DNA of 56,869 nt, from NCBI GenBank assembly GCA_046756545.1, contig JBHHWM010000003.1:1-56869 (forward strand), read 5' to 3'. This DNA is from Rhodothermales bacterium (lineage in GTDB: Bacteria > Bacteroidota > Rhodothermia > Rhodothermales > JBHHWM01). Below are positions 3,984 through 56,869 of the stretch, one piece after another. Position numbers and translations under genes: made by a program. Positions within the stretch are counted from its first letter, which is position 1, and the number at the start of each line of letters is the position of its first letter. Below the pieces are notes generated by a model. It was given only the letters and a program-made list of their open reading frames with translations, ran no database searches and was not told where the DNA came from.

Positions 3984-5399
3984 ATGTCCGGGCTTCGCCT
4001 TCCTATCTCGGTACGACTGACGTTCTGGTATGGTCTGAGTCTGCTCATCATCCTCTCGGTGTTTGTGGTGTTCCTCTACACGAGCTTTCACGTGAGCCTG
4101 CACCGGGACTTTAGCGAGCAGATGGACCGGGCGCAGCAACTGTTGCGGCCTGTAATCCAAACCGAAACGGAAACACCGGTACTGATCCCCTCAAGTGACA
4201 TCCGGTCGGTGGCCTACCAAACCGACGGTGCCGCTGGAACCTATGTGCGCCTGTTGTCGCCGGACGGGACCGTTCTGTACCAGAGTCCGAATTTCGACGG
4301 GCACCAGGACTTCCGGCCTTCGGTGCCCCTTATCGCGACGGAAGCGTCCTTCAACCATACGTGGGAGGGAGCCCCGGCCCGTTCTCGCTACACCCCGGTT
4401 CACATGCAGTCAGGAGCCCTGCGCGGATGGTTGGAGATCACCCGGCTGGAATCGGCCATCCACCGCGAGTTGCACCGGCTGGAGTGGCTGCTCGCCGTAG
4501 GCGTCGTGCTGGGCGTGCTCGTAGCCATCGGCAGCGGCTACAGCCCGGCACGGCGTGCCCTGCGGCCCGTGGCTATGCTCACCGAGGCAGCCAATGATAT
4601 TCGCGTTACGGACTTGAACCACCGTCTACCCACCGACTTCGGCATGCGCGATGAACTCACCGACCTGGCCGACACGTTCAACGCCATGCTGGGCCGGCTC
4701 CAGGCCTCCTTCGAACGGGGACGCCGGTTCCAGGCCGACGCTGCGCATGAAATGTTTACGCCCCTCTCCGCTACGCAGAGCGAGATCGACGTAGCGCTGC
4801 GTCGGCCCCGCGAAGCCGCCTACTATAAACAAACCTTGCAGACCGTACGCGACCACACCCGACGCGTCAGCGGGATCCTCGACGGGTTGCTTCGGCTGTC
4901 CAGAGCCGAAGCCATCGAGCATTCGCAGGCCAGGACGGTGAACCTGGCTGAACTCGCCCGTCAGCACCTGGATTATTACGCATCACACGCCGAAGCCGGG
5001 CAGATTGCCTTGCAGCACGAGGTGGAACCGGACGCCTTCGTGCTGGCCGATCCCGGCCACGTCGAGACGCTGCTCGCCAACCTGATCGACAACGCCATCA
5101 AATACACGCCGCCGGGCGGCACGGTCCGCGTATCGATACGCGTGGACGACGAAACCATCGAACTCACCGTCTCCGACTCCGGTATCGGTTTTGACACAAC
5201 AGAGCGCGCGCATCTGTTCGACCGGTTCTATCGCTCGGACCAACCTGCCGTGCGGCAAACCCATGGAAGCGGTCTCGGCCTCTCTATCGTGAAGGCTATC
5301 GTAGACGGCTACGACGGGCGTATCCAGGCGCACAGCGAGGGTCCCGGCAGGGGAAGCACCTTCATCGTGCGTTTTCCGCGCCTGCAAACAACGCGATGA
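3984..5399 (+). CDS. Sensor histidine kinase with HAMP domain (CusS/CzcS-like)
   Basis: Two TM helices, HAMP, ADAAHEMFTPL H-box, NLIDNAIKY, DSGIG, FDRFYR, GSGLGL; ATG at 3984 in frame with ORF 3588..5399. Confidence 0.93.
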   Translation: MSGLRLPISVRLTFWYGLSLLIILSVFVVFLYTSFHVSLHRDFSEQMDRAQQLLRPVIQTETETPVLIPSSDIRSVAYQTDGAAGTYVRLLSPDGTVLYQSPNFDGHQDFRPSVPLIATEASFNHTWEGAPARSRYTPVHMQSGALRGWLEITRLESAIHRELHRLEWLLAVGVVLGVLVAIGSGYSPARRALRPVAMLTEAANDIRVTDLNHRLPTDFGMRDELTDLADTFNAMLGRLQASFERGRRFQADAAHEMFTPLSATQSEIDVALRRPREAAYYKQTLQTVRDHTRRVSGILDGLLRLSRAEAIEHSQARTVNLAELARQHLDYYASHAEAGQIALQHEVEPDAFVLADPGHVETLLANLIDNAIKYTPPGGTVRVSIRVDDETIELTVSDSGIGFDTTERAHLFDRFYRSDQPAVRQTHGSGLGLSIVKAIVDGYDGRIQAHSEGPGRGSTFIVRFPRLQTTR

Positions 5400-52914: not shown

Positions 52915-54087
52915 CTAGATAGCCGCCAGCGCCTGGTCCAGGTCTTCGATCAGGTCTTCGACATCCTCGACCCCGACGGACAGGCGAATCAGCGTGTCTT
53001 TCAATCCGGCCTGGAGGCGTTCTTCGCGGGGAATGGAGGCGTGCGTCATGGAGGCGGGATGCCCGATCAGGCTCTCGACGCCGCCGAGGCTTTCGGCCAG
53101 GGAAAAGAGGCGCGTGCCGCTCAACACCCGGTGCGCCTTGTCCATGTCATCGTCCCGGAGCGAGAAGGAGACCATGCCGCCGAAATCGCGCATCTGTCTC
53201 TTTGCGAGGTCGTGGCCGGGATCGGCAGGCAGGCCGGGATAATGCACGTGCCCTACCTTCGGATGCGCCTCCAGGAAAGCAGCGATGCGCCGCGTGTTTT
53301 CGCAATGGCGCTCCATGCGCAGGTGCAGGGTCTTCGTCCCTCGGAGCGTCAGGAAACAATCCATCGGCCCCGGCACCGCCCCGGCGCTTTTGACCAGAAA
53401 ACGCAACGTCTCGTCCCAGTCTGCACGACTGGTGCACACCACGCCGCCGATGACATCGGAGTGCCCGGCCAGATACTTGGTGGTGGAGTGCAGCACGAGA
53501 TCCGCACCGAGAGCGAGCGGCTGTTGCAAATAGGGCGTAGCAAACGTGTTATCCACCGCCACGTCGATGCCGTGCGCGTGGGCCAGGTCGCACATCCGGC
53601 GGATATCTACCACACGGAGCAACGGATTCGTCGGCGTCTCAATCCAGAAGAGCTTCGTTTCGGGCCGCAGGGCCTGCTCGACGGCGGCGAGATCCGTCAT
53701 ATCGACGAACGACGCACCGACACCGAACGGGCCGAAGACCTGGGTGATGAGGCGGTAGGTGCCCCCGTAGAGGTCGTTCGAGGCCACGATGTGGTCACCG
53801 GGCCGCAGCCCCTTGAGAATGGCATCGGTGCCGGCTACGCCCGAGGCAAAGCAGATGCCGTAGTCGGCCCCTTCCAGGGCGGCGAGGTTGCCTTCGAGCG
53901 CCGAACGCGTGGGATTGGACACGCGGGCATACTCGTGCCCCTGATGCACGCCCGGCGCTTCCTGTACATACGTCGAGGTCTGGTAGATGGGCGTCATGAT
54001 CGCCCCGCTGGAAGGATCCGGCTGCTGCCCGGCATGAACGGCCAACGTGCCGAAGTGGTACGTTTTTTCGAGGGTCGGTGGATTCAT
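52915..54087 (-). CDS. Cystathionine gamma-synthase/gamma-lyase (PLP trans-sulfuration enzyme)
   Basis: PIYQTSTY, YARVSNPT, DLYGGTYR, ETPTNP, DNTF, HSTTKYLAGHSD, AESLGGVESL. Confidence 0.95.
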   Translation of the reverse strand: MNPPTLEKTYHFGTLAVHAGQQPDPSSGAIMTPIYQTSTYVQEAPGVHQGHEYARVSNPTRSALEGNLAALEGADYGICFASGVAGTDAILKGLRPGDHIVASNDLYGGTYRLITQVFGPFGVGASFVDMTDLAAVEQALRPETKLFWIETPTNPLLRVVDIRRMCDLAHAHGIDVAVDNTFATPYLQQPLALGADLVLHSTTKYLAGHSDVIGGVVCTSRADWDETLRFLVKSAGAVPGPMDCFLTLRGTKTLHLRMERHCENTRRIAAFLEAHPKVGHVHYPGLPADPGHDLAKRQMRDFGGMVSFSLRDDDMDKAHRVLSGTRLFSLAESLGGVESLIGHPASMTHASIPREERLQAGLKDTLIRLSVGVEDVEDLIEDLDQALAAI

Positions 54088-54119
54088 AGAGTTGAGTCGA
54101 GGATTACCATAGAGCACGT

Positions 54120-54157
54120 AAAAAACGAACCCGAGCCTCAAACGAAGCCCGGGTTCG
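54120..54157 (-). terminator. Rho-independent terminator after TPR gene
   Basis: Minus-strand cgaacccgggcttc-gttt-gaggctcgggttcg stem (G-U pairs) followed by tttttt. Confidence 0.8.
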
Positions 54158-54183
54158 CTGCTACACAAGCAAGCAACAGGGCG

Positions 54184-55395
54184 CTACAGGTCGTAGCCGG
54201 CACATTCGGCAACGGCCTCCGCCTTTTCGATCTGGTTCGTCTGTCCGTAGGCCTGGTAGAGCGCCTGGCAAATACCCTGCAAGTCGGCACCCTGCGCTTC
54301 GGACACTTCCCGCGCTCGTTCGAGGGGGGCAATGGCCTGCTCGAAGAGCCCGCGCCGCTGGGTGGACAGTTCGTCTAGCTGCGCTTCCATCGCCGAAATC
54401 TCGTCGGCGGACAGGTCGGCGCGTTTTTCGCGGAGATTGTCGTCGATCTCGTTATACTGGGCGTTGATCGCCACCGCCTTGTTGACATACGCCGCGCCCA
54501 GGTTATACTGTGCATTCGCATACTCGGGGTCGATCTCGGCGGCTTTGGCCAATTGCTCGATAGCGCCGTCATAATCTTCCATTTCGAGCAGGATCGAGCC
54601 GTAGTTATACCGGTAGAGCTTGTTATCCGGCTCGTTTTCTACAGCGCTTCGATACACCCCCAGGGCCTCATCCGTTTTGCCGGACACCACGTAGGCATTC
54701 ATCATGAGAGTCTGGATCTGCTCGCTTTCCGGATACACCGCGCGGGCTTTTTCCAAAACCGCGATCACGTTCTCATACTTTTCCTGCTCGCCGTACAAGG
54801 TGGCCAGGTAAACGAACGTGTCCTCCGAGGTATCCCCCTTCTCGATGGCGGATTCGAGAGGTTGGATGGCCTCGGCATTGCGCCCGCCGTTGAGCAGCGC
54901 AAAGGCCTGGTTGACGTAGGTACTTGCCGAATCAGGGAAGATCAACGAAGCATTGCCGAAGTAATCAGCGGCAGCACCAAATTCCGCGGAGCCGTTCTCG
55001 GTGTTCTGACCTCTGTTAAAAGCCTCCACACCGCGTTGAAACTCACTGAAGTAGGCGATGTTGAGCCGGTTGTCGACATCCGACCCCAGCGCTGGATCGA
55101 GTTCTTGGGCGCGTTGGTACGCCTCGATCATTCCACGGAAGAGCGTGTTGTGCTCTTCCACATCCCGCACGGCAAAGGCCTTTTCCTGGAGCACGCGGCC
55201 CTTGATCTGATACGCCTCGGCGTTCTCAGGATTCGTTTCCAGCGCCTTGTCGATATTCTCCAGAGCGCGGTCGTAATCCTTGTTGTTCAGGTCAAGTTTG
55301 GCCCCCTCCACGTTCGGATCGCTAGAGCATCCACGGGCTCCAAGCAACAGGACTCCACCCAAGAGGATGGCTAGAAAGAGGGAAAATCGCTTCAT
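54184..55395 (-). CDS. Tetratricopeptide-repeat lipoprotein
   Basis: Signal peptide ending ARGC, repeated TPR helices (YRYNYG, AQYNLG, LEKAR..YP). Confidence 0.9.
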   Translation of the reverse strand: MKRFSLFLAILLGGVLLLGARGCSSDPNVEGAKLDLNNKDYDRALENIDKALETNPENAEAYQIKGRVLQEKAFAVRDVEEHNTLFRGMIEAYQRAQELDPALGSDVDNRLNIAYFSEFQRGVEAFNRGQNTENGSAEFGAAADYFGNASLIFPDSASTYVNQAFALLNGGRNAEAIQPLESAIEKGDTSEDTFVYLATLYGEQEKYENVIAVLEKARAVYPESEQIQTLMMNAYVVSGKTDEALGVYRSAVENEPDNKLYRYNYGSILLEMEDYDGAIEQLAKAAEIDPEYANAQYNLGAAYVNKAVAINAQYNEIDDNLREKRADLSADEISAMEAQLDELSTQRRGLFEQAIAPLERAREVSEAQGADLQGICQALYQAYGQTNQIEKAEAVAECAGYDL

Positions 55396-55619
55396 GGTAT
55401 CGGTGTGCTATGACTAGAAGGTATGAAATTCGGGTACAGGGAGACATCAAGATTTAAAGGTAACGCCAGCTAAAGGTTCTCACAAGACGGAAGCATGGAT
55501 TCTATGTAGATTTTTCCAGAAAGGAACACGTGTGCCGGATGCGCTTTTGCCTGAGCATCATGCCTTATCCACCGTTGGATTACTGACCTTGCCCCTCCCT
55601 CTTGCCGAGGGTTCAGCGT

Positions 55620-56609
55620 ATGCCCCCACACCCTGCGAACGCCACACGTACCGTGCCCACGCTGCACGCTCTGGTCGCCTCGATCATCGATTATGCGGGG
55701 CTCTTTCCTCCGGCGGACCTTCCCCTGGACGAAGCCATCCATCACTATGCGCGCTACCGTGGGGAACCCGACGCCTGGATGCTGGCTCGCTTCGTGATCC
55801 CCGTCCGTCGGCTCGAAGCCCTGACGCCGTATAGCGGTCTGTTTGCCGAACATCCGCCTTTTCGCTTTACCGTCCTCGGTACCGGCGGCCCCGACACCGA
55901 GGCGTTCCTCTCGGCCTTCCGGTCCGACCTGGAAACCATCCGGGCGTTTCACCAACGGTATCCCGGACAGGTACGAGTGGACGGAATGGAAGTCCGCCTG
56001 CCGGCGACGCTGCCGGGCACCGATACGGACACGATCCGTGCCTTCCTCGACGCGGTACGCCGACTCGCCGCCCCGGTCCATCCCGGCCTGGATCTTTTCT
56101 TTGAAGCGCCGCTGAATGACGCCCTGCGCCAGCACGCCCCGGCAATCCTCGAAGCGATGGCCTCGCATAACCGCGACCACGGCGAACGGGTGGGCTTCAA
56201 GATGCGCACCGGCGGCCTGATGCCCGAAGCATTTCCGGCCCCGGAACACCTGGCCTTCGCCATCCTGGCGTGTTTGAAAGCAGGCGTACGCTTCAAAGCT
56301 ACTGCGGGGCTGCACCATCCCGTCCGCTGCTATCACGAAAGCGTGCGCGCACACATGTACGGCTTCTTTAACCTGTTCGGCGGGGCGGTACTGGCCGCCA
56401 CGCACCACTTCGACGAAGCCACCCTGCGCACCCTCCTGCTCGACGACAACGCCGCCCATTTCCACTTCCACGATGACGCCTTCGTGTGGAACGGCTATTC
56501 GGCTTCGCTCAATGCGATCCGCCGGGTGCGCACCGAGTACGCGATCTCTTTTGGTAGTTGCAGCTTCGACGAACCCCGCGAGGATCTCCGAGCCCTCGGA
56601 TTGCTGTAG
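55620..56609 (+). CDS. Conserved uncharacterised protein preceding fahA
   Basis: IIDYAGLFPP, GFKMRTGG, FKATAGLHHP, MYGFFN, SFGSCSFDEP; ATG at 55620. Confidence 0.85.
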   Translation: MPPHPANATRTVPTLHALVASIIDYAGLFPPADLPLDEAIHHYARYRGEPDAWMLARFVIPVRRLEALTPYSGLFAEHPPFRFTVLGTGGPDTEAFLSAFRSDLETIRAFHQRYPGQVRVDGMEVRLPATLPGTDTDTIRAFLDAVRRLAAPVHPGLDLFFEAPLNDALRQHAPAILEAMASHNRDHGERVGFKMRTGGLMPEAFPAPEHLAFAILACLKAGVRFKATAGLHHPVRCYHESVRAHMYGFFNLFGGAVLAATHHFDEATLRTLLLDDNAAHFHFHDDAFVWNGYSASLNAIRRVRTEYAISFGSCSFDEPREDLRALGLL

Positions 56610-56682
56610 ATACCCGATTCCCGTCGCTATCTTAGCATAACGCATACGGACCTCTCTGTGTCACGTTTTAACCCACGCACTC

Positions 56683-56869
56683 ATGCCTGATCCGACCACG
56701 GACCCTTCCCTGCAATCCTTCATCGAAGTCGCCCCCAACGGACATTTTCCCATTCAGAACCTGCCTTTCGGGGTCTTTCGGCCCGGGGACGGGGCTCCTC
56801 CCCGCGTCGGCGTCGCCATCGGCGATTTCGTCCTTGATCTCTCCGTCCTGGAAGAAAACGAACTCTTCG
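56683..56869 (+). CDS. fahA: Fumarylacetoacetase, 5' partial
   Basis: Hand translation MPDPTTDPSLQSFIEV...HFPIQNLPFGVF...RVGVAIGDFVLDL is the FAH N-terminal signature. Confidence 0.93.
   Translation, partial: MPDPTTDPSLQSFIEVAPNGHFPIQNLPFGVFRPGDGAPPRVGVAIGDFVLDLSVLEENELF

Follow-up and report, generated by a model that had tools for sequence, protein, structure and literature searches.

Which enzyme isomerizes maleylacetoacetate in bacteria that degrade tyrosine and have no gene assigned to this step? The breakdown of tyrosine and phenylalanine via homogentisate is textbook metabolism, and its isomerase step stands without a gene in Bacillota, Bacteroidota, Acidobacteriota, Chloroflexota, Planctomycetota, Verrucomicrobiota, and other phyla. 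A glutathione-independent isomerase activity was reportedly found biochemically in Gram-positive bacteria decades ago. A 2018 study of Bacillus thuringiensis notes that no gene for the isomerase can be identified there (PMC6193087). The question is raised here by the 3' end of contig JBHHWM010000003.1 of a Rhodothermales bacterium (Bacteroidota; assembly GCA_046756545.1), which we analyzed as a stretch of 56,869 nucleotides (the window). There, an unnamed gene, called X together with its protein, lies directly upstream of fahA, the gene for fumarylacetoacetase. That X belongs to the homogentisate pathway is close to certain. On balance, we favor the reading that X is a maleylacetoacetate cis-trans isomerase that is not a glutathione transferase (GST) and is probably independent of a thiol cofactor, a functional analogue of EC 5.2.1.2 that is co-transcribed with fumarylacetoacetase.

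An unannotated gene directly upstream of fahA

A first reading, made from the letters of the window (the sequence-only reading), had singled out a conserved unknown gene 73 bp before fahA on the same strand, with four invariant-looking motifs, as a missing-step enzyme of tyrosine catabolism. The gene and its spacing were confirmed, with an open reading frame (ORF) for X at 55620-56609 and one for fahA from 56683, and all four motifs were found. The features of the two genes are listed below; strand numbers within the protein are those of the predicted structure.

55620 to 56609, + strand: gene X, with an ATG start and a TAG stop at 56607-56609, 329 amino acids (ORF and translation)
55689 to 55712, + strand: DYAGLFPP (residues 24-31), covering the C-terminal end of strand 1 plus the loop after it (DSSP)
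55989 to 55991, + strand: E124, a conserved acid on strand 4 (99% conserved in 266 homologues)
56103 to 56105, + strand: E162, an invariant acid at the end of strand 5 (homologue alignment)
56199 to 56216, + strand: KMRTGG (K194-M-R196-T-G-G) on strand 6, where K194 is the candidate Schiff-base lysine
56295 to 56321, + strand: KATAGLHHP (K226-ATAGL-H232-H233-P), strand 7 and its loop
56553 to 56576, + strand: GSCSFDEP (G-S-C314-S-F-D-E318-P) at the end of strand 8, where C314 is the candidate nucleophile
56610 to 56682, + strand: X-fahA spacer of 73 bp, scanned for terminator-like sites
56683 to 56869, + strand: 5' end of fahA, 62 codons (PF09298, E 4.8e-12; TIGR01266 positions 1-51)

An alternative TTG start for X lies six codons further 5', at 55602, and would give 335 amino acids; the database record for the protein (P0002) begins at the ATG. 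The 73-bp spacer contained no terminator-like site, so X and fahA are probably co-transcribed and, as read from the DNA, probably form one transcription unit. The window stops inside fahA. Its last 55 nucleotides (56815-56869) are the first 55 nucleotides of contig C186, which carries the remainder of fahA (565 bits to TIGR01266, above the curated cut-off) and, behind it, an HSP20 gene, the same as in relatives. Given this overlap, fahA (about 427 amino acids) is intact and was cut only by an assembly k-mer break.

Even with E values of up to 1 allowed, scans against Pfam-A and NCBIfam gave no match for X; this includes the zeta-class GST model TIGR01262 (MaiA/GSTZ1) and the family models PF01791 and TIGR00126 of 2-deoxyribose-5-phosphate aldolase (DERA/DeoC). 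A profile search of PDB sequences gave no genuine match, and a match to a glucanotransferase (E 0.12) was rejected as spurious, since it was confined to the word DYAGLF. Protein language-model and structure atlas look-ups returned unnamed clusters only, and full-text literature searches found no paper naming or assaying the family. Relatives are plentiful: a word-indexed search scored 8,000 candidates, of which at least 7,977 were related clusters at 90% identity, with all named relatives annotated as "hypothetical protein," and an exhaustive HMMER search returned at least 4,690 clusters at 50% identity with E values up to 0.001, including 1,546 at E values up to 1e-30. By sequence, X defines its own unannotated family, outside the MaiA/GST and DERA sequence families.

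In an alignment of 266 X homologues, about 35 positions were 97 to 100% conserved. These include D24, Y25, A26, G27, P30, P31, E124, E162, K194, R196, G198, K226, T228, G230, H232, H233, N251, R304, G312, S313, C314, E318, and P319, among which K194, R196, and C314 were conserved in every homologue. The four motifs are thus invariant blocks of the family and not chance words. Its signature can be written as D-Y-A-G-x-F-P-P, K-x-R-x-G-G, K-A-T-A-G-L-H-H-P, and G-S-C-S-F-x-E-P in a barrel of about 250 to 340 amino acids, and the window protein contains all four blocks.

A short variant of X (250 to 267 amino acids) keeps the four blocks and every invariant residue, while the stretch between strands 2 and 4 is about 75 residues shorter. 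This variant (L164-L167; for example, L165:381-1130, +) always adjoins a shorter FahA of about 385 to 400 amino acids and is common in the class of genome G203 and in Acidobacteriota.

Diverged copies of X, with 24 to 28% identity, were found in two or three Balneola-like genera (L148-L156; for example, L148:5974-6951, -). They sit at the orthologous position but away from fahA. K194, K226, and E124 are retained in them, whereas R196, H232, H233, C314, and E318 are lost. We had considered the weak matches in genera g14, g15, and g19 as paralogues with a different function and rejected this, as the flanking genes show diverged positional orthologues. The joint loss of five residues and of the fahA linkage ties R196, H232, H233, C314, and E318 to the fahA-linked function, and the diverged copies look like cases of decay or of changed function.

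X accompanies fumarylacetoacetase across phyla

We scanned one genome per species and obtained 595 X relatives, and the neighborhoods of the best 80 were compared by unbiased clustering of all ORFs within 7 kb of X. These 80 loci span about 14 phylum-level groups: Rhodothermia, Balneolia, Chloroflexota, Calditrichota, Ignavibacteriota/Chlorobiota, Planctomycetota, Cyanobacteria, Acidobacteriota, Bacillota, Verrucomicrobiota, Eisenbacteria, Armatimonadota, Nitrospirota, Marinisomatota, and a Poseidoniia archaeon. A single neighbor dominated. At 69 of the 80 loci, a fumarylacetoacetase of about 420 amino acids (PF09298 and PF01557) was encoded on the same strand immediately downstream of X, with a median gap of 48 bp (-89 to +330 bp in 67 of the 69). 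Among the 11 loci lacking an adjacent FahA, seven break off within 900 nucleotides of X, at contig ends; the other four have at least 3 kb of downstream sequence without FahA, which is encoded elsewhere in three of these four genomes.

Other genes of the pathway are found in the same operons. HPPD lies directly upstream of X at nine of the 80 loci, HmgA follows FahA at 11, and the order in Bacillota is HPPD-X-FahA-HmgA. Recurrence beside fahA, which the sequence-only reading had put forward, was borne out. The neighbors other than FahA vary by phylum, so the X-FahA linkage is not simply inherited synteny.

Gene fusions and complete tyrosine operons

A search among longer proteins revealed X-FahA fusions in three clusters, with X placed N-terminal to a complete FahA. 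One of these clusters was present on four contigs, in which no stop codon separates the two domains. In nine further clusters, X forms the C-terminal domain of a fusion with acetoacetate-CoA ligase; the first 740 residues of the fusion protein score 792 bits to TIGR01217 and constitute a bona fide ligase. At locus L171, the genes are arranged as HPPD-HmgA-aminotransferase-[acetoacetate-CoA ligase::X]-FahA, and locus L160 has the same gene set behind a LysR regulator. In both operons, the isomerization is the one step on the way from tyrosine to acetoacetyl-CoA that lacks an assigned gene, and X is the sole unassigned domain.

An apparent HmgA-X fusion (P0274; L161:6811-10189) was discarded as an indel artifact of a long-read contig, on which HmgA and FahA are split over two to three frames; the true gene order at L161 is hmgA-X-fahA-hppD. 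At L170 (5001-6812), we observed an apparent fusion of X to a CAAX protease (Rce1-like, membrane), which overlaps fahA by 4 nucleotides and lies directly upstream of it. At the same locus, a PIN/RHH toxin-antitoxin pair is inserted between the CoA ligase gene and X.

X occurs with the pathway genes and without maiA

We compared the distribution of X with those of FahA, HmgA, and the known isomerase gene maiA in sampled genomes, which are related to one another, so that formal P values overstate the case. Among 201 Bacteroidota genomes, X was found in 38, FahA in 76, HmgA in 109, and maiA in 0. All FahA-positive genomes were also HmgA positive; 37 of the 38 genomes with X had both genes, and X occurred in 1 of the 125 FahA-negative genomes. 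Among 151 genomes of Bacilli, six had X and seven had FahA; all six X genes adjoin FahA, and X was found in 0 of 144 FahA-negative genomes. X was present in two of the four FahA-positive genomes among 121 Verrucomicrobiota and in 20 of 151 Acidobacteriota genomes. In the class of G203 (151 genomes), where X was searched in FahA-positive genomes only, all eight of these carried it, seven times next to FahA, and none had maiA. The association of X with the pathway recurs in five unrelated clades.

No maiA gene above the family cut-off was detected in any of the 77 X-bearing genomes tested or in the genome of the window, which is 96.45% complete. In the latter, an HPPD-HmgA pair is encoded on contig C127 and fahA at the window end and on C186. 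As these three enzymes are present and maiA was not found, the isomerase is the only missing step in this bacterium.

A Flavin_Reduct-like gene (PF01613, E 5e-15; no NCBIfam name) of about 270 to 300 amino acids directly follows fahA at 6 of 20 Bacteroidota fahA loci that lack both X and maiA (L124, L126, L127, L130 [4557-5375, -], L133, and L137), all of them HPPD-HmgA-FahA operons. This gene may be an unrelated alternative that fills the isomerase slot. G203 itself, a 7.8-Mb metagenome-assembled genome labeled Alcaligenaceae, contains X (L077) and no FahA or maiA match. The sampled genomes of its class are unlike Proteobacteria, in that few have FahA and all that do also have X, and the label may therefore be wrong.

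The predicted structure of X resembles class I aldolases

Structure prediction, proposed as a check in the sequence-only reading, gave a confident model (AlphaFold2 with a 35-sequence alignment; mean pLDDT 95.6, pTM 0.92). The predicted fold is a (beta/alpha)8 TIM barrel to which a small sheet is added after strand 7; it is not a GST fold, and its structural neighbors are TIM barrels. In such barrels, the active site is usually located at the C-terminal ends of the strands. This is where the conserved polar residues of X are found in the model: D24 on strand 1, E124 on strand 4 (residues 118-126), E162 on strand 5, K194 and R196 on strand 6 (191-196), K226 and T228 on strand 7 (225-228), H232 and H233 in the loop that follows, and S313 and C314 on strand 8.

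In an exhaustive structural search, ranks 1 to 6 were all DERA (Z 13.3 to 15.0; other TIM barrels, Z of 12.5 or less), with root mean square deviations of 3.4 to 4.2 Å over 211 to 242 residues. Foldseek also ranked DERA at the top, with an E value of 4.7e-06 to 1n7k. In DERA, a class I aldolase, strand 6 carries the Schiff-base lysine, strand 7 another lysine, and strand 4 an aspartate. Among DERA genes from this order, the corresponding positions are D87, K130 (strand 5), K159, and K188, and E124, E162, K194, and K226 of X are spaced nearly in the same way along strands 4 to 7, as judged by strand order and spacing. On the model, E124 would correspond to the catalytic aspartate of DERA. The Foldseek matches also include the hydratase-aldolase PhdJ (6dan) and engineered DERA variants trapped as Schiff bases with enals; the latter set a precedent for iminium activation of a conjugated double bond and show that this fold can support it. 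A comparison of the X profile with a DERA alignment by hhalign was not significant (probability 0.2%, E 0.31), so the sequence gives no basis for claiming homology to DERA. A true deoC gene is present separately in this genome.

A candidate maleylacetoacetate isomerase

If X is the isomerase, the pathway in this bacterium would run as follows. HPPD and HmgA, encoded on C127, would make maleylacetoacetate; X would convert it to fumarylacetoacetate; and FahA, the product of the next gene, would cleave the latter to fumarate and acetoacetate. Maleylacetoacetate has a C4 ketone conjugated to a cis C2=C3 double bond. In the proposed mechanism, K194 on strand 6 would form an iminium at the C4 keto group, with K226 and E124 assisting in the manner of DERA-type class I aldolases, and this iminium would render C2 electrophilic. 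C314 or water could then add reversibly at C2 and remove the double bond, the C2-C3 bond would rotate, and elimination and hydrolysis would release fumarylacetoacetate to FahA. R196 and R304 may hold the carboxylates. We put forward only tentatively the wider proposal that X is the glutathione-independent isomerase of most nonproteobacterial tyrosine degraders and works cofactor-free, through a lysine Schiff base and an enzyme cysteine.

Several observations weigh against X being the isomerase. The activity was assigned by elimination, from context, fusions, and co-occurrence, and the resemblance to DERA is at the level of fold and architecture, with residue equivalences drawn from strand order and spacing. 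The commonest fusion partner is acetoacetate-CoA ligase, which acts two steps downstream, and not HmgA or FahA alone. Of the 76 Bacteroidota genomes with FahA and HmgA, 39 have neither X nor maiA, and G269, G367, and G472 likewise carry FahA and HmgA without X or maiA. In some close relatives, the flanking synteny persists but X is gone: at L118-L120, L122, L123, L125, and L128, in relatives from the same order and class, a TPR or HU-like gene is followed by fahA with no X between them. X has therefore disappeared more than once, with FahA and HmgA remaining. From the genomes without X and maiA, it follows that X is not indispensable, that further analogues exist, or that isomerization can be nonenzymatic. 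Nonenzymatic, thiol-catalyzed isomerization is known from GSTZ1-deficient mice and would explain a dispensable step. The samples were also poor in maiA, the single maiA-positive genome (Acidobacteriota) having neither X nor FahA, and X is carried by a cyanobacterium (L051), a member of a group known to make glutathione.

Adjacency, fusions, and co-occurrence would fit any reaction between HmgA and FahA, and X could act on maleylacetoacetate or fumarylacetoacetate otherwise than by isomerization: as a hydratase-aldolase, which would hydrate C2=C3 and, by retro-aldol cleavage, yield a 3,5-dioxo acid for FahA, or as a keto-enol tautomerase that would ready the substrate for FahA. A DERA-like fold with lysines on strands 6 and 7 would suit such chemistry, as would the match to PhdJ. 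A hydratase-aldolase, however, would need a glyoxylate route and would leave the classical pathway without an isomerase. Moreover, the strict pairing of X with a canonical FahA that scores above the curated cut-off of TIGR01266 suggests that the normal substrate is made, and the invariant cysteine, which is lost with the fahA linkage, fits addition-elimination better than aldol cleavage; we regard this group of activities as unlikely. There is a similarly small chance that X is a maleylacetoacetate isomerase using a low-molecular-weight thiol other than glutathione (such as bacillithiol, cysteine, or CoA), its lysines only binding the substrate; it would then resemble the maleylpyruvate isomerases that depend on mycothiol or cysteine. 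To our knowledge, all characterized maleyl-type isomerases of aromatic catabolism use a thiol, and the carriers of X belong mostly to phyla without a canonical maiA, both of which would be in keeping with thiol dependence. The thiol pools of the carriers, though, differ widely (Bacillota, Bacteroidota, Acidobacteriota, Planctomycetota, Cyanobacteria, and an archaeon), which makes a single external thiol cofactor unlikely, and the invariant active-site cysteine could itself supply the thiol.

The nine fusion clusters with a bona fide acetoacetate-CoA ligase could instead place X on the acetoacetate side of the pathway or in damage control of reactive by-products such as those of the succinylacetoacetate type, with the fahA link reflecting product handling. 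Lysine Schiff-base chemistry on beta-keto acids is classical, and X is dispensable in half of the sampled FahA-positive Bacteroidota. Even in the fused operons, however, the X domain still stands directly upstream of fahA, so the ligase-X fusion may simply join neighboring genes; X also tracks FahA and not acetoacetate metabolism at large, as its near absence from the FahA-negative Bacteroidota and Bacilli shows, and X-FahA fusions exist. We consider a role on the acetoacetate side improbable. That X is a noncatalytic partner or regulator of FahA, or that the linkage has no functional meaning, is hardly credible: about 23 polar and glycine residues at the strand ends are 97 to 100% conserved across phyla, a typical pattern for a TIM-barrel active site, and X and FahA have stayed together in about 14 phylum-level groups despite differing surrounding genes. 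The sequence-only reading had named a glutathione-independent isomerase or a hydrolase as examples of the missing-step enzyme. As far as computation goes, the missing-step proposal is supported: the genome has no canonical maiA that could be found, and the family is very strongly enriched next to homogentisate genes, in addition to its fusions with FahA and acetoacetate-CoA ligase. Of the two examples, a hydrolase seems the less likely.

If the isomerase assignment is true, one family of several thousand sequence clusters without a Pfam or NCBIfam model or a characterized member would close the isomerase gap, and pathway reconstructions and automated gap-filling would be corrected for a large share of bacterial genomes. 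A new way to isomerize a conjugated double bond may also emerge; such cis-trans isomerase chemistry is not known to have been described for a class-I-aldolase-like TIM barrel.

The region upstream of X

Upstream of X, the window contains an intergenic region and two genes on the opposite strand.

55396 to 55619, no strand: intergenic region between divergent genes, the presumed promoter region of the X-fahA operon
54184 to 55395, - strand: TPR lipoprotein gene, divergent from X
52915 to 54168, - strand: gene for a Cys/Met-metabolism pyridoxal phosphate (PLP) enzyme of the cystathionine-gamma-lyase type (PF01053), divergent and upstream of X

No sigma-70-type match was found in 55396-55619, which means little for a member of the Bacteroidota. 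A PF01053 PLP gene stands divergently upstream of X at 20 of the 80 loci, in the unrelated groups Rhodothermales and Chthoniobacterales. This may be a coincidence or may reflect a link to sulfur amino-acid metabolism.

Comparison with known systems

DERA is the closest solved fold to that predicted for X, and, going by strand order and spacing in the model, the two may be alike in their conserved lysines on strands 6 and 7 and in the acid on strand 4. They also have in common a strand-7 motif, K-A-[ST]-[AG]-G (V-K-A-S-G-G in DERA), with the reservation that the profile comparison was not significant. X exceeds DERA by about 100 residues and has additional elements following strand 7; it also has the HH, R196, and GSCSF motifs that are absent from DERA, and it lacks the phosphate-binding context of DERA.

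Thiol-dependent maleylpyruvate isomerases, which comprise the GST-zeta enzyme NagL and mycothiol- and L-cysteine-dependent enzymes of the DinB type, are analogous replacements for a glutathione-dependent isomerase in lineages that use other thiols, a pattern on which the sequence-only reading drew. Unlike X, they have GST or DinB folds and act in the gentisate pathway, and no family model matched X. Maleate cis-trans isomerase is cofactor-free, and a cysteine of the enzyme adds as a nucleophile to the maleyl C=C bond. This enzyme of the Asp/Glu racemase superfamily is the nearest mechanistic precedent for the role suggested for C314, although its fold is unrelated, its substrate is another one, and no lysine is involved.

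The slot proposed for X, between homogentisate dioxygenase (HmgA) and FahA, is that of MaiA/HmgC/GSTZ1, the zeta-class glutathione transferase (TIGR01262, EC 5.2.1.2). Like X, MaiA is often encoded in the hmgA/fahA cluster. The two proteins have no relationship in sequence or fold, X being a predicted TIM barrel without a GST domain. Whereas MaiA needs glutathione, X occurs in genomes without maiA and carries its own invariant cysteine and lysines.

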